From Terriglobia bacterium (GTDB taxonomy: Bacteria; Acidobacteriota; Terriglobia; JAIQFV01), in contig JBGQBO010000001.1 in NCBI GenBank assembly GCA_041494885.1, positions 158,101 to 222,100 of the forward strand: DNA of 64,000 nucleotides. Reading direction: 5' to 3'. The notes under the pieces are model-generated. The model did not search any database and was not told the origin of the DNA. It saw only the letters and a program-made list of their open reading frames with translations. Below, in pieces: positions 11,061 through 63,793 of the stretch. Position numbers and translations under genes: made by a program. Within the stretch, counting starts at the first letter, position 1. Every line of letters starts with the position of its first letter.

Positions 11061-12206
11061 TCAAACCGATGTCCCTGATTGTCTCCACTCCGACAGGAAT
11101 TGCGTCGCGAACTCTGCGAAGCGAGAAGACGCAATAGATTGCCTGATTCGCCTCATAGTGTCAAGATAAAAGTAGATGTTATGGTAGGTGTTGAGGACTG
11201 CGGAAAGCACCTCATTCTGGTGATAGAGATGCCGCAAATAGGCGCGGGAATACCTCCTGCAAACAAAGCATTCACAACGCTCGTCGATCGGTATTTCGCT
11301 CCCCTTGTGAATTTCATTTTTGATGACGATATGCCCGCTGTGGGTGAACAGCCATCCATTCCGGGCATTCCGCGTGGGCAGGACACAATCGAACATATCC
11401 ATGCCCCGGCGGACCCCTTCAACCAAATCACCCGGGGTCCCGACTCCCATCAAGTATCGGGGCCGGTCCGCCGGCAATAGCGGCGCAGTGGTCTCGACCA
11501 GTTCAAGCATTTTTTCCTTTGATTCTCCAACGCTGAGCCCCCCGATGGCATATCCGGGGAACTCCTGGGCGAGCAAATGGTCAGCGCAATCTCTGCGCAA
11601 ATCGGGATAGACGCTGCCTTGCACAATCCCAAACAAGGCCTGGTGACCTCCGCCCTCCGGCAGCCGATGCTGGTCGAAGTAATTCCTGCATCGCTCGGCC
11701 CAACGCACTGTCCTCAACATCGATTGTTTCGCATGTTCATGAGAACAGGGAAAGGGAGTGCACTCATCGAAACACATGAGGATGTCCGCGCCGAGGTTCA
11801 TCTGAACTTCCACGGAACGTTCCGGCGAGAAAAAATGGGCTGAGCCGTCATAGTGAGACCGGAAGCGCACCCCCTCTTCAGTAATCTCCCGCAGATCGCT
11901 CATGGAAAAAACCTGAAATCCCCCGCTGTCGGTCAGCAAGGCTCGCGGCCAGGAGATAAACCGGTGAAGGCCGCCCATCTTGCGTATGAGCTCATCTCCG
12001 GGCCGCAAATATAAATGGTAGGTGTTGGCTAAAAAGATCGGGACATCCAGTTCTTCCAGTTGCTCCTGTGTAAGGGCTTTGACAGTCCCCGAGGTGCCCA
12101 CCGGCATGAACACGGGCGTGTCGATGTCGTGGTGCGCCGTGACCAGCTTCCCCAATCGTGCTGCGCCATCGGTGTGCACTATCTGAAACTGGAATGATGA
12201 ATTCAT
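11061..12206 (-). CDS. tgt: Queuine tRNA-ribosyltransferase
   Basis: 381 aa; TPVFMPVGT, LANTYHL, catalytic DLREI..., and a CxCxxC...H zinc site near the C-terminus (CECFVCRRYSRAYLRH). Confidence 0.9.
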   Translation of the reverse strand: MNSSFQFQIVHTDGAARLGKLVTAHHDIDTPVFMPVGTSGTVKALTQEQLEELDVPIFLANTYHLYLRPGDELIRKMGGLHRFISWPRALLTDSGGFQVFSMSDLREITEEGVRFRSHYDGSAHFFSPERSVEVQMNLGADILMCFDECTPFPCSHEHAKQSMLRTVRWAERCRNYFDQHRLPEGGGHQALFGIVQGSVYPDLRRDCADHLLAQEFPGYAIGGLSVGESKEKMLELVETTAPLLPADRPRYLMGVGTPGDLVEGVRRGMDMFDCVLPTRNARNGWLFTHSGHIVIKNEIHKGSEIPIDERCECFVCRRYSRAYLRHLYHQNEVLSAVLNTYHNIYFYLDTMRRIRQSIASSRFAEFATQFLSEWRQSGTSV

Positions 12207-12344
12207 TGGAGCATGAAGTTCGATGCAACCTCAAGGGAGGCCGGTCTCACCATCACCCCCCGGTACAGAAAAAAGCGCTCCGATCCGCCACGACGGATCC
12301 GGAGCGCTCCCTCGAGACGCCATAAAAATCAAGCTGGAACGGCT

Positions 12345-13082
12345 CTACTTCTTGATCGCCGCCCATCCGACCACACAGGCCACCACGATCGCCCAGATAA
12401 TGATGATGGTGGTGAGCGACTTCTTAAAGGTCAGGTTCTTCGAGACCCCGACCACGCCTATCGCCAGCACGATGAGGTACCAGAGGACGAAGAGATCAAT
12501 CGATTTCCCCAGGGCGTACAACGCCTTATTGCTGGGATCGATCAGGATCGAAAGATTGGATTGCACAATATCGGCGGGATTGCCAAATTCCGTGGGCTGT
12601 TTGACAAACAAGATGGGAATCGCGATGATCGACTTTAACAGGCTCGGCATGGACGCATAAGCGTTCATCGCAAACATCTTTTTGAACGTCGTCTCCGCCC
12701 CCATCATGAAACCAAAAATCGCGTAAAGCACCCCCGACACGACAACCAGGCTGAGTGGGACCACCACCACAACCACAACATAACTGAAGATCATGCTCAC
12801 CTTCAATCCAGATTGAAGGGCCTCATCGGGTGGCACGGGCCGCCCCGATTTCTCAATCTGGGCCTTGATCAGCTCGAGCATGTCCGCGTGTGAAAGAAAC
12901 ACATACGTGATGGCCAAGGCCACCAGCAAAATCAAGACCGCGGGCACAATCCAGTCCGGCTTGCGATTGATGTCTTCAAATGTAGCTTTCGGGGAGATGA
13001 ACACTCCAATGATTCGTTCCAAGGGGCTCTTGGTCGGTTCGGGTTGAACGGGTAATGCGCTGCCCGGCATTTCCTGACTCAT
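12345..13082 (-). CDS. Yip1-domain membrane protein
   Basis: 245 aa; polytopic membrane protein with N-terminal soluble segment, Yip1-like topology. Confidence 0.55.
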   Translation of the reverse strand: MSQEMPGSALPVQPEPTKSPLERIIGVFISPKATFEDINRKPDWIVPAVLILLVALAITYVFLSHADMLELIKAQIEKSGRPVPPDEALQSGLKVSMIFSYVVVVVVVPLSLVVVSGVLYAIFGFMMGAETTFKKMFAMNAYASMPSLLKSIIAIPILFVKQPTEFGNPADIVQSNLSILIDPSNKALYALGKSIDLFVLWYLIVLAIGVVGVSKNLTFKKSLTTIIIIWAIVVACVVGWAAIKK

Positions 13083-16477: not shown

Positions 16478-16915
16478 ATGTTATCACCCGGAGAGCAGGC
16501 GCCCGATTTCAAGGTGAAGACCCATGAAGGAAATGAAGTTTCGCTGAGCCAATTTGGAGGGAGTAAAGTTGTCCTATGGTTTTACCCAAAGGCAGACACC
16601 CCCGGCTGAACCAACGAAGGCAAAGGATTCCGTGATCGAATCCGAGAGTATGAGGCGAAAAACACAAAGATCCTTGGCATCAGTTTTGACACCGTCGAAG
16701 AAAATGCGGCTTTTGCGAAGAAGTTTCAATTTCCATTCCCCCTGTTGTGCGATACGGACAGGAAAATAGGATTGGCTTACGGGGCGTGCGAATCGGCCCA
16801 CGATGAATATGCCAAGCGCATCACTTATGTGATCGGCGAGAATGGAAAGATCCTCCAGGCCTATCCCAAAGTCGATGCCGCACGCCATCCGAACGAGCTG
16901 CTGGAGAAGCTGTAG
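16478..16915 (+). CDS. bcp: Selenocysteine-containing peroxiredoxin (Bcp/PrxQ-like); in-frame TGA at 16607..16609 read as Sec
   Basis: ATG 16478 with AGGGAGGA Shine-Dalgarno. 43 codons (…VVLWFYPKADTPG), then TGA, then 101 in-frame codons (TNEGKGFRD…ISFDT…LLCDTD…). This aligns residue-for-residue with E. coli Bcp ([23 protein letters not shown]) with the TGA at the peroxidatic Cys. The two halves appear only as sub-threshold ORFs in the track. Confidence 0.7.
16625..16643 (+). promoter_or_regulatory. Putative bacterial SECIS hairpin for the Sec-Bcp UGA
   Basis: GGAUUC-CGUGAUC-GAAUCC: 6-bp stem with a 7-nt loop containing GU, starting 15 nt 3' of the UGA, inside the reading frame. Confidence 0.45.
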
Positions 16916-17059
16916 GAGCGCACCCATCGACGCAGCCCATTTCCGTCGGCAACGTCAGCAGGGCCTTTGTGCCTTTCCGTCTTCGGGTGAAATCGATGTA
17001 CCGATCCGGCGAGAAGTTACCGGCCCGGACCGCGGCTTGGGGGACAGAAAATTCAAGAG

Positions 17060-17905
17060 TCAGTAGAACACCTTTTCGAGGAACAAACCAAACGGAGGGG
17101 CTGTCCACTCAGCCGGCTTGGGAGAGGGTTTATAGAAAAACGAACCAAATTCATCCCGAGTACAATGGCCCGCGCTTAATTCCACCATGCTCCCCACCAG
17201 GCGCCGGACCATCTTCCACAGGAATCGGTCCGCACGGATGTGAAAGGTCAACAGCTCGGCATAGCAGGGCCGCGTAATACGAATCTGCCGCCACTCGCAT
17301 TCATCCACCGTACATTGAAAGGAGCGCTCTTCCTCCTCATCCGGATCACAAAAAGACCGGAAGCTATGTCTTCCCACGACGAGCTTCGCAGCCTCCTGGA
17401 GCACAGGCAGTTTGATCTCGCGCCTCGGACACCAGGCATGACGCCGCAAGAAGGGGGTGTACGATTCAACCAGTTGATAGCGGTAACTGCGGGACCGTGC
17501 GTCATGGCGTGAATGAAAATTCAGGGGGACAAACGAGGCTTGGGTTACTGTGAGGTCAGCAGGAAGGCCGCTGTTGAGTTCCTGCATGATCTTCCCTGCG
17601 GACCACAGGCGCGGATCATTGGCATGGTCCCCGGCATGAAAAGCTGTGTTTAAAAGGGGGATGTCACGGCTCCGGGAGGCGGACCTTTCAACCGGAGGAT
17701 CCCCGTGAAGGACTGCATTCACGACCTGGGCCTCGGCATGGACGCCCCGATCGGTGCGGCCCGCCGCGATGATCCTTGGCTTTTCCCGCAGGACGTCGAT
17801 CATCGCCGTCAGTAGCTGACCCTGGACGGTGCGCACGTCCTTTTGAATCTGCCAGCCGGAAAATCGCGTGCCTTCGTATGCTAGCGTGAGCTTCAGGTTT
17901 CTCAT
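17060..17905 (-). CDS. truA: tRNA pseudouridine(38-40) synthase TruA
   Basis: 281 aa; LAYEGTRFSGWQ...GRTDRGVHA catalytic Asp motif. Confidence 0.9.
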   Translation of the reverse strand: MRNLKLTLAYEGTRFSGWQIQKDVRTVQGQLLTAMIDVLREKPRIIAAGRTDRGVHAEAQVVNAVLHGDPPVERSASRSRDIPLLNTAFHAGDHANDPRLWSAGKIMQELNSGLPADLTVTQASFVPLNFHSRHDARSRSYRYQLVESYTPFLRRHAWCPRREIKLPVLQEAAKLVVGRHSFRSFCDPDEEEERSFQCTVDECEWRQIRITRPCYAELLTFHIRADRFLWKMVRRLVGSMVELSAGHCTRDEFGSFFYKPSPKPAEWTAPPFGLFLEKVFY

Positions 17906-17977
17906 TTCAATGGTTACCGACAGTCTTCATTGATGCTGATTTGTGAAGGGGGCACGTCTATAGGTTACCTTGCATCT

Positions 17978-18050
17978 CTATTCCTGCTTTTCCCCGGCAC
18001 CCGACACCTGGCGCCTTCCACACTTCCCACTGCGCACTGCCCACAGCTCA
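17978..18050. repeat. REP-like intergenic repeat, copy 2 (core ACCCGACACCTGGCGCC)
   Basis: Matches 14203..14278 (see copy 1). Confidence 0.5.
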
Positions 18051-18452
18051 CTCCTCTTTCAACACCGCCCACGTCGCACCCCACCCTCCCGCTTCCGGCC
18101 TCGCATCTCTGAACGACACAACCTGCGGATGGTTCGAAAGGACTGATCGGACAATTTCGCGCTGCACTCCAATTCCACGTCCGTGAATGATCCGAACCGT
18201 ATGAATGCCCTTCTCGTGAGCCTCTCGGAGATATTCTTCAAGGACGACCTTTATATCTCTGGGTGAAAAAGCATGCAGATCGATCGAATCTTCGATAGGA
18301 ATGGCGACGGGGGCTCCGGAGGGGAAGGCCTCCTCATGATTTCGGAGCTTGGCATTCTGGCCTCCGGCCTCAGGCTTCCGACCTCTGACCTCTGACTTTT
18401 GACTTCCCTCTTCAGAGGATGGAGAACTTTGCGATCCGGGCTTCCTTTCCAA
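18048..18452 (-). CDS. Smr-domain protein
   Basis: 134 aa; C-terminal IDLHAF...TVRIIHGRGIG...VLSNHPQVVSF is a Smr (MutS2 C-terminal-like) domain. Confidence 0.6.
   Translation of the reverse strand: MERKPGSQSSPSSEEGSQKSEVRGRKPEAGGQNAKLRNHEEAFPSGAPVAIPIEDSIDLHAFSPRDIKVVLEEYLREAHEKGIHTVRIIHGRGIGVQREIVRSVLSNHPQVVSFRDARPEAGGWGATWAVLKEE
18352..18420. repeat. Partial copy of the TCTGAC(C/T)T tandem-repeat element (lies inside the 3' part of the Smr-domain ORF)
   Basis: ccgacctctgacctctgacttttgacttcc resembles the tandem heptamer blocks at 27990..28060 and, inverted, 24900..24990. Confidence 0.35.
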
Positions 18453-18461
18453 AAGTGCTCC

Positions 18462-20060
18462 TTAGATCACGATGGCTTCCTGGTATTCACCGAACACCCG
18501 TCGCATGGCGTCCGAGATTTCCCCCACGGTGGCATACGCCTCCACTGCACTGAGGATGGGCGGCAAGAGGTTCTCTTTGGGATCCCCTGCGGTCGCTTCG
18601 ATTAGCTTCAGTGCACTTTGAGTCTTAGCTGTGTCCCGCTCCGCTCTCAAGGCAGCGAGGCTTTTCTTCTGCTGCTCTTCCAAGGCGGGGTCAATTCGTA
18701 AGATGGGAATGGGCTTTTCGTGTTCCGAAACAAAAGCGTTGACGCCCGTTACAATCTGGTCCTTGGATTCGATAGCGCGTTGATATTGGTAGGCCGACTC
18801 CTGAATCTCCTTCTGGACGAATCCCGATTCAATGGCCTGGAGCATCCCTCCCATCTGTTCGATCCGTTCGATGTACTCTTCCGCGCGCCGTTCGATCTCG
18901 TTGGTCATCGACTCGATGAAATAAGAGCCGCCGAGTGGATCCACGACATCAGCGACACCGCTTTCCTGGGCGATGACCTGCTGGGTGCGGAGGGCGAGCA
19001 GTGCGGATTCTTCCGTGGGGAGGGCCAGTGCCTCGTCGCGCGAGTTGGTGTGCAGTGACTGCGTGCCCCCGAGCACGGCGGCCAACGCCTGCAGGGCCAC
19101 GCGGATGACGTTGACCTCGGGCTGCTGGGCGGTCAGGGTCGCCCCCGACGTTTGGGAGTGAAATCGCAGCATCCAGGATTTCGGCTTGCTCGCCCGAAAA
19201 CGGTCACGCATGATCCTCGCCCACATCCGACGTGCGGCCCTGAACTTTGCCACTTCCTCCAGGATATTGTTGTGCGCGTTAAAGAAAAAAGATAGCCGGG
19301 GAGCAAACAGGTCCACATCCAGGCCCGCCTCGATCGCCGCCTTCACATAAGTGATTCCGTTCATCAGCGTGAAGGCCACCTCCTGGACAGCGGAGGAGCC
19401 GGCTTCGCGGATATGATATCCGCTGATTGAAATCGTGTTCCATTCCGGCAGGTGCTTGGCGCAATACTCGAAGATATTGGCAACGATGCGAAGGGAATGC
19501 CTGGGGGGATAGATATAGGTCCCGCGCGCTATATATTCCTTCAAGATATCATTCTGCACCGTGCCCGAAAGCTTTGCCGGCGCCACCCCTTGTTTCTTTC
19601 CCACTGCAACGTACAGCGCCAACAGGATCGCGGCAGTGGAGTTGATGGTCATAGAGGTTGAAACCTTGTCGAGCGGGATGCCATCGAACAAGGTCTCCAT
19701 GTCTCGCAGTGAATCGATCGCCACTCCCACCTTCCCGACTTCCCCCGATGCCAGCGGATGATCGGAATCGAGTCCGATCTGGGTGGGAAGATCGAATGCC
19801 ACTGATAAGCCCATTTGTCCCTGTGAAAGGAGAAACTTGTACCGGCGGTTCGATTCGGCTGCTGAACCAAACCCGGCATACTGGCGCATGGTCCAGAAAC
19901 GCCCCCGGTACATGTTGGGTTGAATACCCCGAGTGAAGGGAAGCTCGCCCGGCTGACCCAGCGAGGGCCCGGCCTCGAATCCGGACAGGTCTTCCGCGGA
20001 GTAAAAGCGTTTCAACTCGATGTGCGAAGTCGTCTCGAATTTTGGTTTACGCTCAGGCAT
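18462..20060 (-). CDS. Methylmalonyl-CoA mutase family protein, large-subunit N-terminal (substrate-binding) domain
   Basis: 532 aa; [24 protein letters not shown]..., [11 protein letters not shown], strongly conserved across acyl-CoA mutases; no B12-binding domain in this ORF. Confidence 0.85.
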
Positions 20061-20154
20061 GGCTAATCCCCGGTTCAGATAAGAAAACGTCGAACCAATA
20101 CACTGAATGGAATGCCCTGCTGGACCGTCGCAGCGCCCTGCGGTGAGCGGCTGC

Positions 20155-20484
20155 TTACTGCTTCTTTCTCACGGCGCGAGCCCGCAAGAGCGAGGTCACC
20201 GCGAAGGTCAGCAAGAGGACGGCAAATCCCGCAGAGGTGTAGAACCGAATACCGGATGAAGCGATTTCCGGGGTGTAATCTTTATATTCCTTCCACGCCG
20301 CGAAGGCGGCGCTCAGCCCCAGCATGAAAAAAAAGAGGCTCATGAACTGATGAAAAATGACCTTGAGCGATCGGATGAACCCGGCAAAGGAATGCTTTAA
20401 TATCCTCCAAATCATCTCGCGTATGTTAGGGAGAAAGCAGAGGGATGTCAAATGAGCATATCTGAGAACCGAGCCCCGCGACAA
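20155..20484 (-). CDS. Hypothetical small membrane protein
   Basis: 109 aa, two predicted TM segments; no recognisable motif. Confidence 0.3.
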
Positions 20485-52229: not shown

Positions 52230-55200
52230 TTGCCAGAGCCGCTGGAGAACAACGAGATGAAGTGGTCCATTGAACACAAGGTGATTGTGGGTTTTGGACT
52301 TGCCTTGCTCATTCTGATGTTCATCAGCGTCATCTCCTACCGAACCACAACCCGCCTGGTTGAGAACACTCAGTTGGAGTCCCAGTCCTTTCAGCAACTG
52401 GAGTTACTCGTATCCTTGATGGCCCGATTAACGGATGCTGAATCCGGACAGCGCGGATACCTCATTTCGGGAGATGAACTTTATCTGGAGCCGTACAATA
52501 CTGCCACCGTTGTGATCGAACAGCAGATCGAAGATTTCAGGAAGTTGAATGATGACGATCCTGAAGAATTGCCGAGGATCGACGTCCTTCACTCCCTGGT
52601 TCGTCAGCGATTTCTCCTCCTCCAAAAATCGATCGATCTGAAGAAGGCGAACCCTTCGATTTCCCCCAATCAAATTGCCTTACCGGACGAGGGAAGGAAG
52701 GTCCACGATCAGATTCGAAAGTTAATTCTCGAAATGAAGGATCATGAGAATGAGGTGTTCATCGAGCGGTCGAAGGCAGAGAAGGTCACTGCTCGCAATG
52801 CCATCAGGGCCATCATCCTGGGAGGGCTTTTATCTTTCGCGCTGGTCGCCATCTCGATTGTGATCATCCGTCGTGACTTCGCCCAACGCAGCCGGGTCGA
52901 AGAATCACTTCGACGCCTCAGCGCGATCCTTGAGGCCACCCCTGACTTTGTGGGCACGGCCAACAAGCAGGGGCAGGTCCTTTCGGTAAACAAAGCTTGG
53001 CGGAAGATTCGTGGGATCGCCGAAGACGTCGATATCTCCGCGCTCCGCATCGCTGACTTCCATCCCCGATGGGCCACCGAGGTGATCAAGAAAGAGGCCA
53101 TCCCCACGGCGATTCGCGAAGGGACCTGGAGTGGCGAAACTGCCCTGTTGGGACGGGATGGGAGCGAAATCCCTGTCTCCCAGGTCATCATCGCTCACAA
53201 GTCGGAACAGGGAGAGGTGGTGTATCTATCGACCATCGCGCGCGATATCACAGAACGGAAACAGACGCAGCTCGCCCTGCAAAAGGCTCGCGACGAGATG
53301 GAAGTTCGCGTCGAGGAGCGCACCGCTGAACTGGCCAAGACGAATGCGTTGCTCCTCCGCACGAACCGGGCGCTGCGGATGATCAGCGAGTGCAATCAAA
53401 TTCTCGTCCACTCTGCCAACGAAAAAGCCCTGCTGAATGAAACCTGCCAGGCTCTCGTGGAGATCGGAGGGTATTGCCTGTCCTGGATTGGCTTTGCGCA
53501 GCAGGATGACAGGAAAAGCGTCCTTCAGGTGGCCTCGGCTGGAGATGAAGAAGCTTACGCGAAGTCCCTCGATTTGACCTGGGCCGACACTGGGCCCGGG
53601 CAAGGACCTACCGGGACGGCGATCCGCACGGGAACGCCTGCCATCGCGAACGACGTTCAGTCGGATCCGTTTTTCCTGCCCTGGCGGGAGGAGATCGTCA
53701 GGCGGGGGATCGCCTCGTCCATCGCTCTGCCTTTGACCCTCGACGGGAAAACTCTGGGGGCTTTGAATATTTATTCCAAAACGCCAGAGGCCTTTGACGT
53801 GGCCGAGGTCAACCTGCTCACGGAACTGGCGAGCGACCTGGTCTATGGCATCGCCACCTTCCGCGCCCGGGCCGAGCGTGAACGCATGGTGAATGCTCTT
53901 CAGGAGAGCGAGGAACGCTTCCGTCTGTTTGTCGTCGGCGTGGAAGATTATGCGATCTTCATGCTGGATCCGGAGGGACGCATTGTCAGTTGGAACACTG
54001 CGGCTGAGCGCATGAAGGGATATACCGCGGCGGAGATTATTGGCAAACATTTCTCTCTCTTTTACACGGCGACAGACCTTGAACACGACTGGCCCGGGCA
54101 CCTCCTGGAGGTGGCAAAGGCCAAGGGCTACGTGAAGGATGAAGGCTGGCGGCTGCGCAAGGACGGATCGCGGTTTTCAGCCGACGTGGTCATTACCGCC
54201 TTGCGTGAGAAGAATGGCTCCCTGCGCGGCTTTGCCGAGGTGACGCGCGACATCACGGAGCGCAAACGCGCAGAAGAAGAACTCAAATTCAGAAACCTCC
54301 TCCTCAATACGCAGCAGGAAGCAGCGATCGATGGAATCCTTGTCGTGGATGAAAACGGCAAGATGATTTCCTTCAACCAGCGGTTTGTGGAGATGTGGGG
54401 GATTCCGCGCGAGGTGATTGAGAGCCGGTCCGACGAGCGCGCCCTGAAGTCGGTGCTTGAAAGGCTGAATGAGCCGGACCAATTTATTAAGAAGGTAAAA
54501 TATCTGTACGAGCACCCGAACGAGACGAGCCAGGATGAGATTGCCCTTCGTGACGGAAAAATCTTCGATCGTTACTCCGCGCCGATGGTCGGAACCGACG
54601 GGAAGTATTACGGGAGGGTCTGGTATTTTCACGATGTCACTGAGCGCACGCGGATGGAGGAGGCGCTCAAGGGTTCGGAAAAGGGATACCGAAATCTCGT
54701 GGAGACCGCACTCGTGGGGGTCTATAAGATCAATATGCAGGGAGACATTCTTTATCTTAATGACGCTCTCGCGAGAATGTTGGGGTTTGTCTCCCCCGTC
54801 GAAATGATTGCCGACCACGCCCAGATGAGATTCAGGAATCCGAAGGACCGGGAAACACTCCTCGACCTTCTCCGGAGAAAAGGCCGGGTGGAGGGGTATG
54901 ACGCGGAGATTCTCACCAAAAAAGGGCAACCCAAGAACGTGATGATCAGCGCCATCCGCGAGGGGGACATCCTCTCGGGCATGGTGATTGACATTACGGC
55001 ACGCAAGCAGGCCGAGAAGGCCCTCTTGAAGAGCCAGGCGCGCCTGCAGCTTCAGATTGATCGCATGCCGATCGCGTGCATCGTTTGGAGTCCGGAATTC
55101 CGGGCTCTCTCGTGGAATCCCGCGGCAGAAAGAATTTTTGGCTTTGCAGCCAACGAAATCCTGGGGAAGGGCCCGTACGGGCTCATTGTGCAGAAGGGGA

Positions 55201-55412
55201 TCCAGCCCCAGGTGGAGGTGATTTGGGAACGTCTCCTGAAAGGCGACAGCGCGGCCCATAGTATCAATGAAAATCTTACCAAAGACGGCCGAACCATCCT
55301 CTGTGACTGGACCAATACCCCGCTGCTCGGAGAGGACGGCATCGTCGTCGGCGTTCTCTCGATGGTCCAGGATATAACAGAAAAATGGAAACCCCTGGAG
55401 GAGGTCCAGTGA
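52230..55412 (+). CDS. CHASE3 / multi-PAS / GAF sensor protein lacking any output domain
   Basis: 1060 aa; CHASE3 N-terminus with flanking TMs, then at least five PAS/PAC and one GAF; no H-box, HATPase, GGDEF, EAL or HTH found by eye. Confidence 0.7.
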   Translation: MPEPLENNEMKWSIEHKVIVGFGLALLILMFISVISYRTTTRLVENTQLESQSFQQLELLVSLMARLTDAESGQRGYLISGDELYLEPYNTATVVIEQQIEDFRKLNDDDPEELPRIDVLHSLVRQRFLLLQKSIDLKKANPSISPNQIALPDEGRKVHDQIRKLILEMKDHENEVFIERSKAEKVTARNAIRAIILGGLLSFALVAISIVIIRRDFAQRSRVEESLRRLSAILEATPDFVGTANKQGQVLSVNKAWRKIRGIAEDVDISALRIADFHPRWATEVIKKEAIPTAIREGTWSGETALLGRDGSEIPVSQVIIAHKSEQGEVVYLSTIARDITERKQTQLALQKARDEMEVRVEERTAELAKTNALLLRTNRALRMISECNQILVHSANEKALLNETCQALVEIGGYCLSWIGFAQQDDRKSVLQVASAGDEEAYAKSLDLTWADTGPGQGPTGTAIRTGTPAIANDVQSDPFFLPWREEIVRRGIASSIALPLTLDGKTLGALNIYSKTPEAFDVAEVNLLTELASDLVYGIATFRARAERERMVNALQESEERFRLFVVGVEDYAIFMLDPEGRIVSWNTAAERMKGYTAAEIIGKHFSLFYTATDLEHDWPGHLLEVAKAKGYVKDEGWRLRKDGSRFSADVVITALREKNGSLRGFAEVTRDITERKRAEEELKFRNLLLNTQQEAAIDGILVVDENGKMISFNQRFVEMWGIPREVIESRSDERALKSVLERLNEPDQFIKKVKYLYEHPNETSQDEIALRDGKIFDRYSAPMVGTDGKYYGRVWYFHDVTERTRMEEALKGSEKGYRNLVETALVGVYKINMQGDILYLNDALARMLGFVSPVEMIADHAQMRFRNPKDRETLLDLLRRKGRVEGYDAEILTKKGQPKNVMISAIREGDILSGMVIDITARKQAEKALLKSQARLQLQIDRMPIACIVWSPEFRALSWNPAAERIFGFAANEILGKGPYGLIVQKGIQPQVEVIWERLLKGDSAAHSINENLTKDGRTILCDWTNTPLLGEDGIVVGVLSMVQDITEKWKPLEEVQ

Positions 55413-55452
55413 CATGACGCCGCACTCGACAAGGGTCAGTGAAGGAGAGGAG

Positions 55453-56061
55453 ATGAGATTCGCAGGCAGAACGATCTCGGTCTTAATGGTGAGCCTAAGT
55501 ATGTTCGGAGGAAGCCTGCTGTATGCTGCGCAACCCGCACCGCCCACAACCGATCTGAGTAAATGGAACAGCGCCTCCGAATTGTTGGATGCCCAAGGTA
55601 ACCTTCTCACGAAGGTCACGGTCAGGAATGGAAAGATCGACTTCTCTCGAGCTCCCGGCCAAAGCCGTGAGGCGCTCCTGAAGGCGCTCTACGCATCGGG
55701 AGCCCGTCGTGTGTACAACTCTATCCTGAGCCCCCTTACCATTACTTCACAAGGCCGCCTGGGTGTGAATTTTGAAGGCCAGGGTGGGTTTCAAGCCCCC
55801 AGGGAAACCGATGACGGGTTCGATCTGGCAAATGGGGAAGGTTCGCAGATTCTAGATGCAACGGGGACACTTCTGGCCACGGTCACGACAACGGGTGGCA
55901 AACCCGCGTTAGTGTTCCCTCCTGAAAAGTCTCTCAAAACCCTATATGAAGAAGGCGTCCGATCCTTCTATTACAAATTTGAGCCCATCAAAGGCGAATT
56001 GAAACTGCACGGAGTCAAAATCGTCAAGGACGATAAGGGCGCGTTCATCTTGGAGCCCTAA
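55453..56061 (+). CDS. Hypothetical secreted protein
   Basis: Signal peptide MRFAGRTISVLMVSLSMFGGSLLYAA; starts 2 nt after the sensor stop (track ORF 55414..56061). Confidence 0.4.
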   Translation: MRFAGRTISVLMVSLSMFGGSLLYAAQPAPPTTDLSKWNSASELLDAQGNLLTKVTVRNGKIDFSRAPGQSREALLKALYASGARRVYNSILSPLTITSQGRLGVNFEGQGGFQAPRETDDGFDLANGEGSQILDATGTLLATVTTTGGKPALVFPPEKSLKTLYEEGVRSFYYKFEPIKGELKLHGVKIVKDDKGAFILEP

Positions 56062-56673: not shown

Positions 56674-57530
56674 AACCCACCACGGTGGATTAACAGTTGC
56701 GGCGAGCGGATTCTCAAAATGTGTCACACTGTTCCATATGCTGTTCTTTTGTCGCTTGCTTATTGATGATTTCCCGCTCACCCCGTCTAATATCATCTGC
56801 CACCATTTCTGAGCGTGGTGGGGCACAAAATGGGACACAGTTTTTGTAGAGTGAGAATTCGCCCTGACCGGCCCATGACCCACCACCCATGCTCCCTCAT
56901 GGTCATCGCTCAATTTAGGGACTTTCTTCTTGAAGTTGTGTCCGGTAAGCTTTACACTTTTTCTCGGAAAGTTGCTCCCCCATGTCGGCCTTTGAACACA
57001 ATGACGATTGGCTGGCACTTGAAGCTTTCGATAAAACGATCCCATTCCCCGAACAGAGCGAAAAAGAAGTTGGGAAGCCGGAATCATTTGGTGTGGGAGT
57101 ATTCCACTCATGTCCTCATTTCATTGCGACACGCCGGCTTGCATCGGGGTTCTCAATCGGGATAGGAGGGGATTTTGCGGTCCGGCGGACATCCCGTGAA
57201 ATTCTGTAACGCGATTTCCGTCAAGGACTGCAGGACTTGTCTTAGCATGCAGAATGGGCTGTGTTTGTTTCGACGTTGCCGCCTGATTATGAATTAGGTG
57301 CACAAACGGCAGCCATTGGCCGCGTGAATTGATTGGTCATTTATGGGCAGTCTGTTGTGCAAGGACAAAATGTACATGGGAGCAATGATCACGTCCTGCT
57401 ACATTAGGCTGTGGAGACCGCAGTGTTTGGCTCTACGTGAGAGCAATCTAATACGGCTTCATGTATTAGATCGGCTTCAACACCATTGATCCACATGAAG
57501 GAGCACCTGCCACATAGGTCTGAGCAGCAC

Positions 57531-58463
57531 ATGAGCGGAGAGCGCGGGCCCGCTATTTTGAAACTGCGCCTCCCCACCAATTGGATCGTTCGCGAGCAAC
57601 CGACGAGCGACTATGGAATTGACGTTGAAGTGGAACTCGCCTCGGATACAGTAAGCGGCATCCTGTGCAAAGGCCAAGTCAAATCCAAGACTCCTATTGC
57701 TTGGCGGCAAGATGGCACTTTTCGCGAAGTCGTTGGGAAGAAGAAGCTGGTCTACTGGCAGATTCTCGCTCTGCCAGTTGTCGTATTTCTAGTCGACAAT
57801 ACCACGGAGGAGGTATTTTGGGCGCCGGTCACGTCATCAGCGCCCGCTGAGCTAGTGATTACAGACTCAGTGACGATCGAGAGGCGGATGAACCTTCCCC
57901 AAACAACAGATGCTCTCGAGCGCCATATACGAGGTTATGTCCATTATGCCACTGCGAAGCGGTCGCTGTACCGTCTTCCCGGCACATTGGAACGCTGGCA
58001 GCGCCGCCTTGAATCCACGGACCGGGATTTCTTTCTCCCCGTCGATGAAGAATTCTATCGCGAAACCCATGAATTCTTCGACGAGCTTTTGACCCTGCGC
58101 GAGGCCGTTGGACTTTCCAACGCTGACATCCTGCCATGGATCATTTGGACAGAGCGGTCCCGGTTATTCTTCCCTGACGGTGGCGGGTTGTTGTATTGGG
58201 GCATCTACGATGAGCTTGTCACGTACCTCAAACCTTTTATTGAAGAGACGGTCGAACGGGCGAAGACGCTGCTTGAGAGGGAAGACCCAACGCCTGCGAA
58301 TGCGGCAGCCAAAGCGTTAGTCGACAAGGAAAAGAGGGGGTATGCGGTCTCGTATCGATTTGACTTTGGTCTTCAGGACAGCTTGGACTGGAACAAGATT
58401 GAGCGCATCCTGGACGAAAAGGGTGCTTTGTTCATGCGAATGAAAAAGAAGCAACCAGTATAA
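57531..58463 (+). CDS. DUF4365-like restriction-endonuclease-fold protein with unknown C-terminal domain
   Basis: Start at internal Met MSGERGPAIL; N-terminus ...LPTNWIVREQPTSDYGIDVEVEL...ILCKGQVKSK...YWQILALPVVVFLVD matches the DUF4365 PD-(D/E)xK pattern (D-YGID-xExE...Q.K); about 200 aa C-terminal region with no recognised motif; lower GC than neighbours. Confidence 0.55.
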   Translation: MSGERGPAILKLRLPTNWIVREQPTSDYGIDVEVELASDTVSGILCKGQVKSKTPIAWRQDGTFREVVGKKKLVYWQILALPVVVFLVDNTTEEVFWAPVTSSAPAELVITDSVTIERRMNLPQTTDALERHIRGYVHYATAKRSLYRLPGTLERWQRRLESTDRDFFLPVDEEFYRETHEFFDELLTLREAVGLSNADILPWIIWTERSRLFFPDGGGLLYWGIYDELVTYLKPFIEETVERAKTLLEREDPTPANAAAKALVDKEKRGYAVSYRFDFGLQDSLDWNKIERILDEKGALFMRMKKKQPV

Positions 58464-58542
58464 GTGCCGAACGTGGTGTTGAAACCGACGCGAAAAGAAA
58501 GCGTGCGGCTGACAATCGGCGTTAGATTTATTAGGGGGCGCA

Positions 58543-59466
58543 GTGGAGTACGGTCTTACGCTAATGGTTTTGGGAGCACCGGAGTTCGTCCGAATATCGG
58601 AAGCGGATTATCAAACAATCATCGAGGCGAAACGTGGGTTGTTCGAGTGTCTTTATGTTGAAGAGAAGTTCGACCTTGTGGTCGAGAACTACTTCGAACT
58701 GGAGATATCCCTCCTCGAGTCGGCTGCAAATCATATGGTATTCGGCCGACTGGACTATCGTTACATCCAGGTCGAGCGAGGGTTGTACAATCGGCGACTC
58801 GCGAACCTCCTATCTGCTGGTCGGATCTATGCAGATCATGTGAAACAGCACATCGAGCGGATCTTTCCGCCCGACTCAAATAACGTTCAAGAATTGATTG
58901 CAAAGTTCAGTGAGCAATACGACAAACGACTGGGCTATCGTTCCATGGAAGCCCTTAGAAACTTCATACAGCATCGTGGGCTTCTCGTCCACTCGATGGC
59001 TTACAAAATCAAGCGAGTCAAGCGAACGGGAGAGGACGGGCTGCTCTTCATGGTCACCCCCTATCTAGTGCCAGAGGAACTGCGTGCTGATGGTGATTTC
59101 AAAATGGCAGTGCTTGAGGAGCTCGAGAGTCTCGGAGAAAAGATTGATTTGAAGGAGTTGGTTCGCGACTACATAGAGGGACTGTGGACCGTGCACGAGA
59201 AGATTCGCGAACGTATTCGCCCTTTGACCGAGGCATGGGATTATACGATGCGCAAGGCAGTAGGCCGCTTCCACTCAAACTATCCAGACAAAGATACGGC
59301 TGGTCTCGCAGCTGTCGCTCGCGATGCCGACGACCACTACCTGGATGCGATACCTGTGTTCACTGATTTCATAGAGTACCGTCAGAACTTGGAAGGGAAG
59401 AACAGAAATCTTGTCAACCTTGTGAACCGGTACGTGACGAATGAAGTCGTCGATAAGAAACTCTAA
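58543..59466 (+). CDS. Hypothetical protein, possible HEPN-like (Rx4H: RNFIQH)
   Basis: 307 aa, all-alpha prediction, ALRNFIQHRG motif; no other recognisable domain. Confidence 0.35.
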   Translation: MEYGLTLMVLGAPEFVRISEADYQTIIEAKRGLFECLYVEEKFDLVVENYFELEISLLESAANHMVFGRLDYRYIQVERGLYNRRLANLLSAGRIYADHVKQHIERIFPPDSNNVQELIAKFSEQYDKRLGYRSMEALRNFIQHRGLLVHSMAYKIKRVKRTGEDGLLFMVTPYLVPEELRADGDFKMAVLEELESLGEKIDLKELVRDYIEGLWTVHEKIRERIRPLTEAWDYTMRKAVGRFHSNYPDKDTAGLAAVARDADDHYLDAIPVFTDFIEYRQNLEGKNRNLVNLVNRYVTNEVVDKKL

Positions 59467-59542
59467 CCACTGCGTCCAGACTGTCGGGCGCTGCTGCGCC
59501 AGCCGCTGACGCCTGACGTTAGGCGCCCTCGGGGGGGTATCT

Positions 59543-60196
59543 ATGGCTCAAGATCTACTGAACAGTCTCGCGAATCCGATCATCGCGGTCGGAACACTCG
59601 TCACCGCAATCGCAACCCTTATTGTGGCCATCTACACGACGGGTCTTTGGCGCGAGATTAGGAAACAAAGGAAGGCGATGCAAAAGCCTATATTGGTAGC
59701 ATCCAGGCTTCCGAAAGACGTCGACAATTCTAAAAGCGTCTTTGTTGGCAATTTTGAGTACCCACGCTTTGACTCTTTTGAAACTTCTAGGCTCTACTAC
59801 CTTGGCTTAAAAAACATCGGTCAAGGTCACGCACTCAATGTGCGAGTAGATTCTCTCTTGGTAAATGGCAAGGGCATAGCAATCGGCATTCCGCCTGCGT
59901 GCCACGTTCAGGCTAACGAAACGGTCGCGCTGATAGCAAGATTTGGTTATAACGAACCCGTCTCTGATCTCGAACACAACCCATACCAAGTTGTCATTTC
60001 CTATAGTGATACAGAGGCCAACGAATATGTCTTAAATCTCAATCTCTGGTTCCCGTGGGCTGACCAAGAAGAGGCGATTCAAGCTGTTGTGCTCGGCTCA
60101 CTTGATTCCAGGGCTGAGTTCGGTGCGATCACCGGATCTCTGTCTCGTTATGCGGAATCAATGGGCTACTTCGAACTGCAGCGTCTCATTAGCTGA
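59543..60196 (+). CDS. Hypothetical membrane-anchored protein (single N-terminal TM)
   Basis: 217 aa; IIAVGTLVTAIATLIVAIYTTGLW TM then KQRK; no recognisable domain. Confidence 0.35.
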   Translation: MAQDLLNSLANPIIAVGTLVTAIATLIVAIYTTGLWREIRKQRKAMQKPILVASRLPKDVDNSKSVFVGNFEYPRFDSFETSRLYYLGLKNIGQGHALNVRVDSLLVNGKGIAIGIPPACHVQANETVALIARFGYNEPVSDLEHNPYQVVISYSDTEANEYVLNLNLWFPWADQEEAIQAVVLGSLDSRAEFGAITGSLSRYAESMGYFELQRLIS

Positions 60197-60376: not shown

Positions 60377-63300
60377 ATGCCAGAGAACCTGATAGAGCTT
60401 TACTTGACCGACATGGGAGAAATCCGAGGGACAGGATCTAACGTCCCGGAGACTTCGTTCTATCCAGCATTGGAAAGGCTGCTCTCCAGCATCGGAAAAG
60501 ACCTTTCTCCCAAGGTCCGCTGCGTCATCAACCTTTCCAACCGAGGCGCTGGCCTACCGGACGGCGGCTTGTTCTCCGCCGAGCAGTTCCGCCGCAAGAC
60601 GCGAGACGTGGTTCGCCGAGGCTCAACACAGGCGGACGCCAAGGAGAATCCGTTCCTGGTTCAGAACCCGTCGCGTGGCGTGATTGAAGCCAAGCCGCCG
60701 GCTGAGGATGTGCACCGGGTGGCCGGGAGCGAGCAGGTGGAGCGATACTGGAAGCGTTACGGCATGGTGCTCGTCACCAATTTCCGCGCCTTCGCCCTCA
60801 TCGGCAAAGGCCCAAACGGGCAGCCAAGCGCCCTGGAATCCTTCACGCTGGCCGAGTCCGAGAGTGAATTCTGGCGTCTGACCGCCCATCCTCGACGGGC
60901 GGCGGCAGAACACGGCGAACGCATGGTGGAGTATTTGAAGCGGGTGCTGCTCCATAATGCGCCACTGGCCGCTCCGCAAGACGTGGCCGGCATTCTTGCC
61001 TCCTACGCCCACGACGCGCGCCTGCGCATCGAAAAGGCTGACCTTCCAGCCCTGGCCACCCTCCGGCAGGCACTCGAAGATGCCCTTGGCCTGCATTTCG
61101 AGGGCGAGAAGGGCGAGCATTTCTTCCGTTCGACGCTCATCCAGACGCTTTACTATGGCGTCTTCTCTGCTTGGGTCTTGTGGGCGCGACAGCATGACGT
61201 CAACCGCGAAGAGAAGACTCGCTTCGCCGATGCCATCCGCGAGTCTGCGGCACCGTATACCGTCTCCGGCGGCTTTGACTGGCGCTCAGCCCACTTTCTT
61301 CTACGCGTTCCCATGCTCCGCGCCCTTTTCGTTCAAGTCGCCGACCCCGCCCGGCTAGGTGCGTTGGGGCTCATCGAAGCTCTCGATTGGACCGCCGCTG
61401 CCCTCAATAGAGTTGACCGCGACGAGTTCTTCAAATCCTTCGACGAGGGGCATGCCGTCCAGTATTTCTATGAGCCCTTCCTGCACGCGTTCGATCCCGA
61501 ACTGCGCAAGGAACTCGGCGTCTGGTACACCCCCGAAGAGATCGTTCGCTACCAAGTCGAACGCGTGGACGCCGTCCTCCGCTCTGAACTCGGTCTCGCC
61601 GATGGACTCGCGGACCCGAAAGTGATCGTCCTGGATCCCTGTTGCGGGACCGGCGCATATCTGCGGGCTGTCCTTCGCCGCATCGCTGTCACCCTGCATG
61701 ACAAAGGCGGCGATGCCCTTGTCGCGAACGATCTCAAGAAAGCCGCCATGGAGCGCATCTTTGGTTTCGAGATCCTGCCAGCGCCATTCGTCATTGCCCA
61801 TCTCCAACTCGGTCTGGAACTGGGAACACTCGGAGCGCCGCTGAGTGACCGCTGCGATCCGCCCGAACGAGCGGGCGTCTATCTAACCAACGCCCTCACC
61901 GGCTGGGAGCCACCCAAGGAAAAACCCAAACAGATAGCCTTCCCCGGTTTCGAGGACGAGCGCGACGCCGCCGGCGAGGTAAAGCAGAATAAGCCCATCC
62001 TCGTGATCCTCGGCAACCCGCCCTACAATGGATACGCGGGCATGGCTATGGATGAGGAACGCGACTTATCGAACGCATACCGCACGGCAAAGAAGGTCGC
62101 GACGCCGCAGGGCCAGGGCCTGAACGATCTCTATGTCCGCTTCTACCGCATGGCCGAACGCCGCATAGTAGAGAAGAACGGGCAAGGCATCGTCTCCTTC
62201 ATCTCAAATTATTCCTGGCTCGATGGTCTCTCTTTTACCGGCATGCGTGAACACTACCTCGCCGCCTTCGACCGCATCTGGATCGATAACCTGCATGGCG
62301 ACCGGATTATTTCCGAGTATGCGCCCGACGGCCACACCAGCGAAACCATTTTTGCCATCGAAGGCAACTCACCGGGGATTAAGATTGGCACGGCCATCAG
62401 CTTGCTCGTCAAGAGCGGCACGGGACAAGCCAAAGTCCTTTACCGCGACATGAACCAAGCTCGTGCCGCAGAACGCCGTTCCGCGTTGCTCGCCAGTCTT
62501 GAGGGCTACGAACCGTTGAAGCCCGTTCTCGAAATTGGCTTGCCGTTCAAGCCCCGAGTAGTCTCGAACGCGTACCTCGGCGGGCCGTTGCTTCCAAAGT
62601 TGTTTCCGATTTGGTTCCCTGGCGTGAAGACCAGCCGCGACGATGTGGTCGTGGACATTGACCGCGACCGGCTGGTGAACCGCATGAAAGAGTACTTCGA
62701 CCCGGAGATCACACACGAGCAGATGCGTCAAATTTCGCCATCAGCTATGACCAGCACCAACCGCTTCAAAGCGGAAGCGGTGCGCGATCAGCTCCGCAAA
62801 CGCGGTTTTCTTGCAAAGAACATCGTCCGTTACTGCTATCGCCCCTTTGACGTCCGCTGGCTTTACTGGGAACCCGAGACCAAGTTGCTCGACGAAAAGC
62901 GTAGCGAGTACTTCCTACACGCCGTCGAAGGGAACATCTGGCTCAGTGCCGGTCAGCGCAACCGCAAAGAAGACTTCTATCAGCCACAGGTCACCTCGTT
63001 ACTCGCCGATCACCACATCGTCGAGTCGAATGTGGGCATGTTCCCACTCTACCTGTACGCGCGGACAGAGCACGCGCTCCTGTTACAGCAAGCGGGCCGC
63101 AATCCGAACCTCACCGACGCGGTGGCGGCGTATCTCGCCGCGTTGAAGGCGACGCCTGAAGACCTGTTCTACCACACGCTGGCGATCCTACATGCCCCGG
63201 CCTACCGCGGGGAAAACGCCGGAGCCTTGCGCCAGGACTGGCCGCGGATACCGCTACCAGGGGGAAAGGATGCTCTGCTCGCCTCTCCCATGCTCGGGCG

Positions 63301-63793
63301 GGAGGTGGCAGCGTTGCTGGACACGGAGACGCTCGTGCCCGGCGTGACCGTTGGCAAGATTCGTGAGGACCTCAAGCACATCGCGGTCTTTCAGCGCCTG
63401 GACGGCAAACCGGCACGACCCGAAGCCGGCGACTTGGATCTGACCGCCGGCTGGGGCCACGCTGGCAAGGGCGGAGTGACTATGCCGGGCAAAGGGAAAC
63501 CTATTCGACGGGACGACGGCGCCAACGACATTTTTCTCAACGATATTGCTTCCTGGCGGAACGTACCCGAGGCGGTGTGGGAGTACACCATCGGCGGTTA
63601 CCAAGTCATCAAGAAATGGCTATCGTACCGGGAAAAGCCACTCCTTGGCCGTAGCCTGACCCCCGACGAAGTCCGTTATGTAACGGAAATGGCGCGGCGT
63701 ATTGCAGCGCTTGTCTCTTTGCAAGCCAAATTGGACGAGAACTACCGACTTGCGGTCAAGGCGATGCACAAATGGCCAATGCAGCACAAATGA
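60377..63793 (+). CDS. Type IIG/IIL-like restriction-modification enzyme (or PglX-like): gamma-class N6-adenine DNA methyltransferase in an 1138-aa polypeptide with possible N-terminal PD-ExK nuclease
   Basis: Motif I VLDPCCGTGAYL precedes motif IV ILGNPPYNGY (gamma order); N-terminal LPDGGLF...VIEAKPP could be a PD-(D/E)xK; about 500 aa C-terminal TRD-like region. Confidence 0.7.
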   Translation: MPENLIELYLTDMGEIRGTGSNVPETSFYPALERLLSSIGKDLSPKVRCVINLSNRGAGLPDGGLFSAEQFRRKTRDVVRRGSTQADAKENPFLVQNPSRGVIEAKPPAEDVHRVAGSEQVERYWKRYGMVLVTNFRAFALIGKGPNGQPSALESFTLAESESEFWRLTAHPRRAAAEHGERMVEYLKRVLLHNAPLAAPQDVAGILASYAHDARLRIEKADLPALATLRQALEDALGLHFEGEKGEHFFRSTLIQTLYYGVFSAWVLWARQHDVNREEKTRFADAIRESAAPYTVSGGFDWRSAHFLLRVPMLRALFVQVADPARLGALGLIEALDWTAAALNRVDRDEFFKSFDEGHAVQYFYEPFLHAFDPELRKELGVWYTPEEIVRYQVERVDAVLRSELGLADGLADPKVIVLDPCCGTGAYLRAVLRRIAVTLHDKGGDALVANDLKKAAMERIFGFEILPAPFVIAHLQLGLELGTLGAPLSDRCDPPERAGVYLTNALTGWEPPKEKPKQIAFPGFEDERDAAGEVKQNKPILVILGNPPYNGYAGMAMDEERDLSNAYRTAKKVATPQGQGLNDLYVRFYRMAERRIVEKNGQGIVSFISNYSWLDGLSFTGMREHYLAAFDRIWIDNLHGDRIISEYAPDGHTSETIFAIEGNSPGIKIGTAISLLVKSGTGQAKVLYRDMNQARAAERRSALLASLEGYEPLKPVLEIGLPFKPRVVSNAYLGGPLLPKLFPIWFPGVKTSRDDVVVDIDRDRLVNRMKEYFDPEITHEQMRQISPSAMTSTNRFKAEAVRDQLRKRGFLAKNIVRYCYRPFDVRWLYWEPETKLLDEKRSEYFLHAVEGNIWLSAGQRNRKEDFYQPQVTSLLADHHIVESNVGMFPLYLYARTEHALLLQQAGRNPNLTDAVAAYLAALKATPEDLFYHTLAILHAPAYRGENAGALRQDWPRIPLPGGKDALLASPMLGREVAALLDTETLVPGVTVGKIREDLKHIAVFQRLDGKPARPEAGDLDLTAGWGHAGKGGVTMPGKGKPIRRDDGANDIFLNDIASWRNVPEAVWEYTIGGYQVIKKWLSYREKPLLGRSLTPDEVRYVTEMARRIAALVSLQAKLDENYRLAVKAMHKWPMQHK

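Follow-up and report, generated by a model that had tools for sequence, protein, structure and literature searches.

Among characterised enzymes, the closest relative of the protein described here is RM.DrdII, a Type IIG restriction-modification (RM) enzyme with the recognition sequence GAACCA and N6-methyladenine (m6A) as its modification, which has been listed as an RM enzyme (PMC6430315 Table 1). Its gene is the only large one on pDrdII (CP031161) of Deinococcus wulumuqiensis NEB 479. A second point of reference is DrdV, a Type IIL enzyme represented in the PDB by entries 7LO5 and 7LVV. Three further systems share parts of the same design. LlaGI and LlaBIII, enzymes of Type ISP, have a homologous methyltransferase and recognition domain but carry a RecA-type ATPase between nuclease and methyltransferase, and cut DNA after translocation and collision. 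PglX (BrxX), of the bacteriophage exclusion (BREX) system, pairs a gamma-class methyltransferase with a large recognition region behind it but lacks a nuclease and is dependent on the BREX operon, whilst MmeI combines a methyltransferase of the same class and a large recognition region with an N-terminal nuclease. The gene of interest encodes a protein of 1138 amino acids (aa) and lies on the + strand of a 64,000 nucleotide (nt) stretch of DNA from a Terriglobia bacterium (positions 158,101 to 222,100 of contig JBGQBO010000001.1, assembly GCA_041494885.1), the whole of which is referred to below as the window. We consider it very probable that this gene encodes an intact, self-contained Type IIG/IIL RM enzyme of the DrdII/DrdV kind, one that both methylates and cuts DNA.

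The initial annotation of this DNA, made from its letters alone, described a single open reading frame (ORF) for a 1138-aa RM-like enzyme at 60377-63793 (+), and the sequence contains precisely this ORF. A chance ORF is ruled out by more than 7,900 homologues at E <= 1e-10, and the start codon is supported by the fact that homologues can be aligned from residue 1. Full-length homologues are 60-81% identical to the 1138-aa protein. Both the protein and its flanks recur identically on two independent assemblies, JGI 3300053058 (a 307-kb contig) and Logan SRR29604912. The database cluster that holds the protein at 90% identity has 41-aa peptides as its representative and other members, evidently a clustering artefact.

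Comparison with the characterised enzymes indicates homology over the full length of the chain. DrdII is collinear with the 1138-aa protein and 35% identical to it over aa 95-1123 (E 7e-166), and the first 115 residues of DrdII match a profile of the family's N-terminal domain (hhalign probability 97.6%, E 4e-12); with these two results in hand, the entire architecture can be seen to be common to both. Blocks reading PE.TY, GLPD, EQ..RY and LLTNF are found in both N-terminal domains, the two proteins share their top PADLOC model with similar scores, and each is encoded by a stand-alone gene. They differ in that the 1138-aa protein is longer by 36 aa, in the make-up and spacing of the putative nuclease motif (see below) and in the recognition domain, which is ~35% identical between the two, so that their specificities are presumably different.

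The best structural match to a full-length AlphaFold2 model of the protein (predicted local distance difference test score, pLDDT, 76.5) is DrdV, with a Foldseek E value of 4e-37 over 1215 alignment columns, essentially the whole chain. The methyltransferase and recognition domains of the two proteins also align by sequence (E 4.6e-36, or 1e-50 with the family profile), the order of modules is identical and there is no motor. Identity to DrdV is only ~20%, however, and the N-terminal domains have no detectable profile similarity, nor does the N-terminal model alone retrieve DrdV in Foldseek searches. In the full-length search the LlaBIII and LlaGI structures come next, at ~1e-28 to 8e-32, with BrxX/PglX (1e-12 to 1e-10), MmeI (1.7e-10) and BpuSI (9e-10) 25 or more orders of magnitude behind DrdV. 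The single-chain Type IIG/IIL enzyme that the initial annotation put forward as one of two alternatives is supported by DrdII and DrdV and by the two top PADLOC models, both of them Type IIG profiles (REase_MTase_IIG, E 1.3e-96, 322.8 bits, and E 6.6e-75). The family is known and widespread, and the 1138-aa protein is a further member of it that displays the testable features of Type IIG/IIL enzymes, independent confirmation of the nuclease fold excepted.

More distant still is a protein of Borrelia burgdorferi plasmid lp56, BB_RS07690 (1086 aa), which is 26.5% identical over aa 336-1121 but cannot be aligned with the N-terminal 335 residues; from the plasmid and its size we take this protein to be the product of bbq67. 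Loss of bbe02 and bbq67, both single-gene RM systems, leads to higher transformation efficiency (PMC4466376).

Pfam, PADLOC, alignments to PDB sequences and two AlphaFold2 models (one full-length, one of aa 1-358) agree on the order of modules within the single polypeptide: a nuclease-like domain, a helical connector, a methyltransferase and a recognition domain (Table 1).

Table 1. Positions in the window of the RM gene, its modules and its motifs
Feature	Position (nt)	Strand	Basis
Complete gene, single-chain RM enzyme, 1138 aa	60377-63793	+	ATG start, stop codon 63791-63793; ORF list and translation
N-terminal nuclease-like domain, aa 1-160, predicted PD-(D/E)xK core	60377-60856	+	AlphaFold2 model; hhalign to DrdII N-terminus
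E25, invariant acidic residue right before helix alpha1; putative additional metal ligand	60449-60451	+	Alignments
P61-D62, 'PD' of the putative nuclease motif, start of strand beta2	60557-60562	+	Alignments and model
beta2-beta3 insertion, aa 68-99, predicted helix and low-confidence loop	60578-60673	+	pLDDT <50 at aa 82-89
E104-A105-K106, 'ExK' of the putative nuclease motif, strand beta3	60686-60694	+	Alignments; strand 101-105 in model
Q120-V-E-R-Y124, QxxxY motif, helix after beta3	60734-60748	+	Q120 and Y124 invariant; helix 119-128 in model
All-helical connector, aa 161-350	60857-61426	+	AlphaFold2 models; DrdII alignment
Gamma-class N6-adenine DNA methyltransferase domain, aa 351-640	61427-62296	+	Pfam N6_Mtase aa 363-477, Eco57I aa 524-627
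Motif I, DPCCGTG, aa 420-426, S-adenosylmethionine-binding loop	61634-61654	+	Conservation
Motif IV, NPPY, aa 547-550, catalytic for adenine N6 methylation	62015-62026	+	N547, P548, P549 and Y550 invariant in 49 sequences
Variable target-recognition region, aa 641-960	62297-63256	+	Identity to 113 homologues; overlaps Pfam Type_ISP_C
Conserved C-terminal part, Type-ISP-like specificity domain, aa 961-1138	63257-63790	+	Median identity 76%; aligns with DrdII C-terminus

The methyltransferase domain can be aligned to those of DrdV, LlaGI and LlaBIII in PDB sequences, as can the recognition region, whereas the N-terminal third of the protein has no match there. The sequence DPCCGTGAYL (aa 420-429, nt 61634-61663) precedes NPPY (aa 547-550), placing motif I before motif IV in the gamma order, as had been noted initially, and both motifs are intact: in an alignment of 49 sequences D420, P421, C422, C423, G424 and T425 are invariant and G426 is found in at least 90%. 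Downstream of the methyltransferase, the match to Pfam Type_ISP_C (PF18135) extends over aa 741-1092 (E 7.3e-52), and invariant blocks in the C-terminal part of the protein include W955-P956 and GGYQVIKKWLSYRE (aa 1073-1086). Upstream of it, helices span residues 162-344 in both AlphaFold2 models, with helical structure continuing through 356 in the aa 1-358 model, and this connector aligns with DrdII residues ~120-320. NCBIfam has no model for the protein, its matches all being far under cut-off; one of these, MAD2 (20 bits, cut-off 720), led us to reject the MADS system. Membership of the MmeI family, for which a profile check had been proposed with the initial annotation, was likewise rejected: the MmeI_Mtase match, at 21 bits, does not reach the Pfam cut-off (27), and none of the remaining MmeI domains in Pfam was matched.

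Conservation is distributed very unevenly along the chain. Across 113 close homologues the connector is the most conserved part, with a median identity of 84%, followed by the nuclease-like and methyltransferase domains (79% each) and the C-terminus (76%). The recognition region between aa 641 and 960 is the sole variable part, with a median of 35% and a range of 28-70%. This is how a catalytic scaffold that stays constant, combined with a recognition module that can be exchanged, shows itself in such alignments. Since the recognition domain diverges fast, with no sampled homologue more than 70% identical there, the recognition sequence is probably specific to this enzyme, its own and not readable from the sequence of the protein. 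With no close counterpart among sampled relatives, the recognition domain may add a new recognition sequence to the catalogue of such enzymes.

The N-terminal 160 residues are those on which the assignment of a cutting activity turns. In the AlphaFold2 model of aa 1-358 (mean pLDDT 82.8) they are predicted to form a helix (29-40), three strands (47-51, 63-67 and 101-105), a second helix (119-128) and a final strand (131-134), giving the alpha-beta-beta-beta-alpha-beta topology of a nuclease core. A possible PD...ExK motif had been pointed out in this region, made up of PDGGLF and IEAKPP; both sequences are where they were expected, at aa 61-66 and aa 103-108, and the residues in question are invariant and fall on the appropriate strands of the predicted core, beta2 and beta3. 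Close homologues (49 sequences), a diverse set of N-termini (27 sequences) and a diverse set of full-length members (39 sequences) were aligned. E25 is retained in all 49 close and all 27 diverse sequences and in 38 of the 39 full-length members; D62, which immediately precedes strand 63-67, is invariant in the close and diverse alignments and present in 37 of 39; and E104 and K106, likewise invariant in the close and diverse alignments, are present in 38 and 36 of 39, respectively. Together with Q120 and Y124, these residues are kept in 36-38 of the 39 full-length representatives, down to ~40% identity. QxxxY is a motif characteristic of restriction nucleases of the HsdR type. The placement of all these residues on the predicted strands and helix is the arrangement to be expected for a PD-(D/E)xK nuclease.

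The spacing within the motif deserves comment. It had been judged longer than usual at ~45 aa; the first part of this judgement stands, the second does not, with D62 and E104 in fact separated by 42 residues compared to the 26-31 that are usual among the 39 diverse members. The extra length is accounted for by an insertion, specific to this lineage, between beta2 and beta3. In DrdII, the corresponding spacing is ~18.

A model for how such an enzyme might work can be taken from DrdV, whose mechanism has been described (bioRxiv 10.1101/2021.01.06.425610). By analogy, the recognition domain would bind a short asymmetric sequence, and the target adenine, on one strand, would flip into the NPPY pocket and there receive a methyl group from S-adenosylmethionine, which would mark the host DNA. 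The tethered nuclease domain would not cut the DNA held by its own chain; cleavage, at a fixed distance, would take place only upon the assembly of several site-bound molecules. As a consequence of this assembly requirement, incoming DNA with many unmodified sites would be cut and so told apart from the DNA of the host.

A number of points weigh against this reading of the protein. The reading is weakest at the nuclease fold, which is based on predicted topology and invariant residues. Foldseek searches of the PDB and BFVD with the aa 1-358 model gave no significant match, the best in the PDB being a HsdR nuclease fragment (3h1t) at E 1.8, and a profile built from the 27 diverse N-termini has no match among PDB sequences at E <= 10. 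Pfam searches with the first 350 residues of the protein found nothing, and those with the 27 N-termini gave sub-threshold matches only, in four of them: VRR_NUC in three (best E 0.065) and MmeI_N in one (E 0.085). Comparison of the N-terminal profile by hhalign with EcoKI HsdR, EcoKMrr and the DUF4365 protein encoded nearby was not significant in any case; with EcoKI HsdR only the VEAK motif of the latter was aligned, at a probability of 0.3%. The single positive comparison is that with the N-terminus of DrdII, given above, and DrdII reads GEAEAL where the family of the 1138-aa protein reads GVIEAK. Because DrdII thus lacks the lysine of the ExK motif, homology to DrdII is by itself no proof of the motif's role. 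To this can be added that the 32-residue insertion falls within the putative active-site hairpin and is in part modelled with low confidence, and that the oligomer-licensed mechanism outlined above is carried over by analogy from DrdV, an enzyme of only ~20% identity.

An alternative is that the protein is functionally an orphan or regulatory methyltransferase whose N-terminal domain is decayed or non-catalytic, and whose sole activity is methylation. The unconfirmed fold, the insertion within the putative active-site hairpin and the absence of the motif lysine from the nearest characterised relative are all in keeping with such a protein. The conservation is not: that E25, D62, E104, K106, Q120 and Y124 hardly vary, if at all, down to ~40% identity argues for selection on catalysis, and the N-terminal domain is conserved as strongly as the methyltransferase. 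Further, the domain is found in at least 1,769 clusters at 50% identity and, among the full-length members listed (~1,050-1,210 aa), lies at or near the N-terminus, whilst DrdII itself bears the name of a restriction enzyme and is listed as RM (PMC6430315). We therefore regard an orphan methyltransferase as improbable, and a Type IIG/IIL enzyme that both modifies and restricts as the better description.

Within that description, there is a small chance that the N-terminal module sets DrdII-like enzymes apart as a branch of their own within Type IIG, with a manner of cutting unlike the DrdV/MmeI paradigm; the difference might lie, for example, in the make-up of the active site, or in a cleavage position that varies or is licensed in another way. 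We know of no published cleavage position for DrdII. Were there such a branch, its scaffold, highly conserved across phyla and fitted with a recognition cassette that can be swapped, would lend itself naturally as a base for new specificities, and the 1138-aa protein would be the carrier of a specificity not yet sampled.

The genes around the RM gene raise the question of whether it acts alone. Just upstream (window 57486-60196, +) are three closely spaced genes of low guanine-plus-cytosine (GC) content, encoding a DUF4365 protein, a 307-aa protein and a 217-aa protein. It is conceivable that the four genes make up a larger, undescribed defence system, of which the RM enzyme would be one component: all four are close together on the same strand in a compositionally mosaic stretch, and the N-terminus of the DUF4365 protein matches a nuclease-like PADLOC model (E 4e-12). 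At 84 other loci with a homologue of the enzyme, however, none of the three upstream genes is found beside it, and homologues of the 307-aa protein are found in unrelated contexts that lack the enzyme. The base composition also separates them. As the initial annotation had remarked, the GC content of the RM gene is high (0.601, or 0.72 at third codon positions; 0.551 for the window as a whole) compared to that of the three upstream genes (0.533, 0.501 and 0.488), a gap of 7-11 points. Core-looking genes farther upstream are at 0.56-0.58, making the low-GC trio a larger anomaly than the RM gene. A multi-gene system of this type is therefore most unlikely.

The wider comparison of neighbourhoods points in the same direction. 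In five other contexts, on three long contigs and two plasmids, the neighbours of homologues are wholly different. At the 28 loci whose 6-kb flanks were complete, each neighbour family is confined to four loci at most, the largest recurring sets coming from related taxa, and none of the window's own neighbours recurs beside homologues, weak matches of one of them, the tetratricopeptide repeat (TPR) protein, being all that was seen. With no recurring neighbours, the gene is best viewed as a self-contained, horizontally mobile unit that has no motor and no obligatory partner gene. Around the RM gene itself we found no tRNA, Rfam family, tandem repeat or sigma-70-like promoter; terminator-like sites occur there at chance frequency, and the direct and inverted repeats on its flanks are trivial ones only. 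In two of the three long contigs a DUF4062 gene is located directly downstream of the enzyme homologue (11487-12668 and 11623-12102); this gene is absent from the window.

The Type_ISP_C domain is the specificity domain of the Type ISP enzymes, and its presence invites the proposal that the protein, like LlaGI and LlaBIII, translocates along DNA at the expense of ATP and nicks it when two enzymes collide. LlaGI and LlaBIII are matched by sequence (E 3.7e-30 and 4.6e-23, or 1e-42 and 7e-41 with the family profile) as well as by structure, and 'Type ISP' is the name that the NCBI pipeline gives to annotated plasmid relatives of the protein. The matches to LlaGI and LlaBIII begin only at the methyltransferase domains of those enzymes, however, at their residues 671 and 835. 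No helicase or ATPase domain was found in the 1138-aa protein by Pfam, PADLOC or NCBIfam, and neither a helicase gene nor a BREX or separate methyltransferase gene is present within 10 kb on either side (Pfam and PADLOC, using the source contig downstream). Nor, going by the models, do a nuclease-like domain at aa 1-160 and an all-helical segment at aa 161-350 leave space for a RecA-type motor of ~500 aa. We consider the likelihood of a Type ISP enzyme to be very slight indeed. Equally slight is that of the other alternative initially offered, a PglX/BrxX protein that acts with brxA/B/C, pglZ and brxL and does not itself cut DNA, for which the shared gamma-class methyltransferase and large C-terminal recognition region, a weak PADLOC match (E 1.7e-5, 20.7 bits, aa 415-614 only) and the retrieval of BrxX/PglX structures by Foldseek count for little against the far better matches to DrdV and DrdII, a REase_MTase_IIG score of 322.8 bits, an invariant N-terminal D/ExK motif, the lack of conserved neighbours in the 28 loci and the failure of the predicted brxA/B/C, pglZ and brxL genes to appear in the 10 kb of the source contig beyond the window.

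The proper annotation of the gene is thus that of a stand-alone Type IIG/IIL RM enzyme, neither a BREX component nor 'type ISP', and going by its sequence, the enzyme probably serves its host, a bacterium known from an environmental metagenome and not from culture, as a working defence against DNA from phages and plasmids. Relatives are widely distributed. A scan of species-representative genomes identified 75 loci in more than 10 phyla, at 35-86% identity, the closest homologues coming from metagenome-assembled genomes of Nitrospiraceae. Among plasmids (PLSDB), a tblastn search returned 263 records, with full-length matches of 43-48% identity on plasmids of Rhizobium, Sphingomonas and Azospirillum. 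All of the annotated plasmid relatives are called 'type ISP restriction/modification enzyme', apart from one 'adenine specific DNA methyltransferase'. The NCBI pipeline applies the former label to motor-less enzymes that include RM.DrdII and the Borrelia lp56 gene; it is misleading, and probably stems from the common C-terminal domain. No family model exists for the DrdII-like N-terminal domain, and the Type ISP label that hundreds of motor-less relatives carry in a public pipeline is worth correcting. One homologue (P0113) is predicted as a single 1462-aa product that also includes a Y1 transposase (PF01797, RayT); the fusion may be genuine, or gene calling may have created it.

Of the three low-GC genes upstream, that for the 307-aa protein belongs to a family of 127 members with no Pfam domain, which elsewhere is found in variable islands (in Citrifermentans bremense, for example, beside TIR and OLD-like genes) and never with the enzyme. 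Farther upstream (window 52230-56061, +) lies a gene for a 1060-aa CHASE3-GAF-5xPAS sensor that lacks a recognisable output domain, and right at its stop codon begins a 215-aa ORF with no Pfam match. In the 10 kb beyond the end of the window are genes for two proteins of 230 aa and 493 aa without a family match, a helix-turn-helix (HTH) protein, a trypsin-TPR protein and a DUF3800 protein. The cargo 3-7 kb past the window end (16864-20433 of the JGI contig stretch) is island-like. The trypsin-TPR protein matches the protease part of the PADLOC model RT-Protease_XI, and the HTH gene, which is capH-like, runs at its 3' end into one arm of a 31-nt inverted repeat (17205-17235 and 17438-17468) whose arms are 97% complementary.

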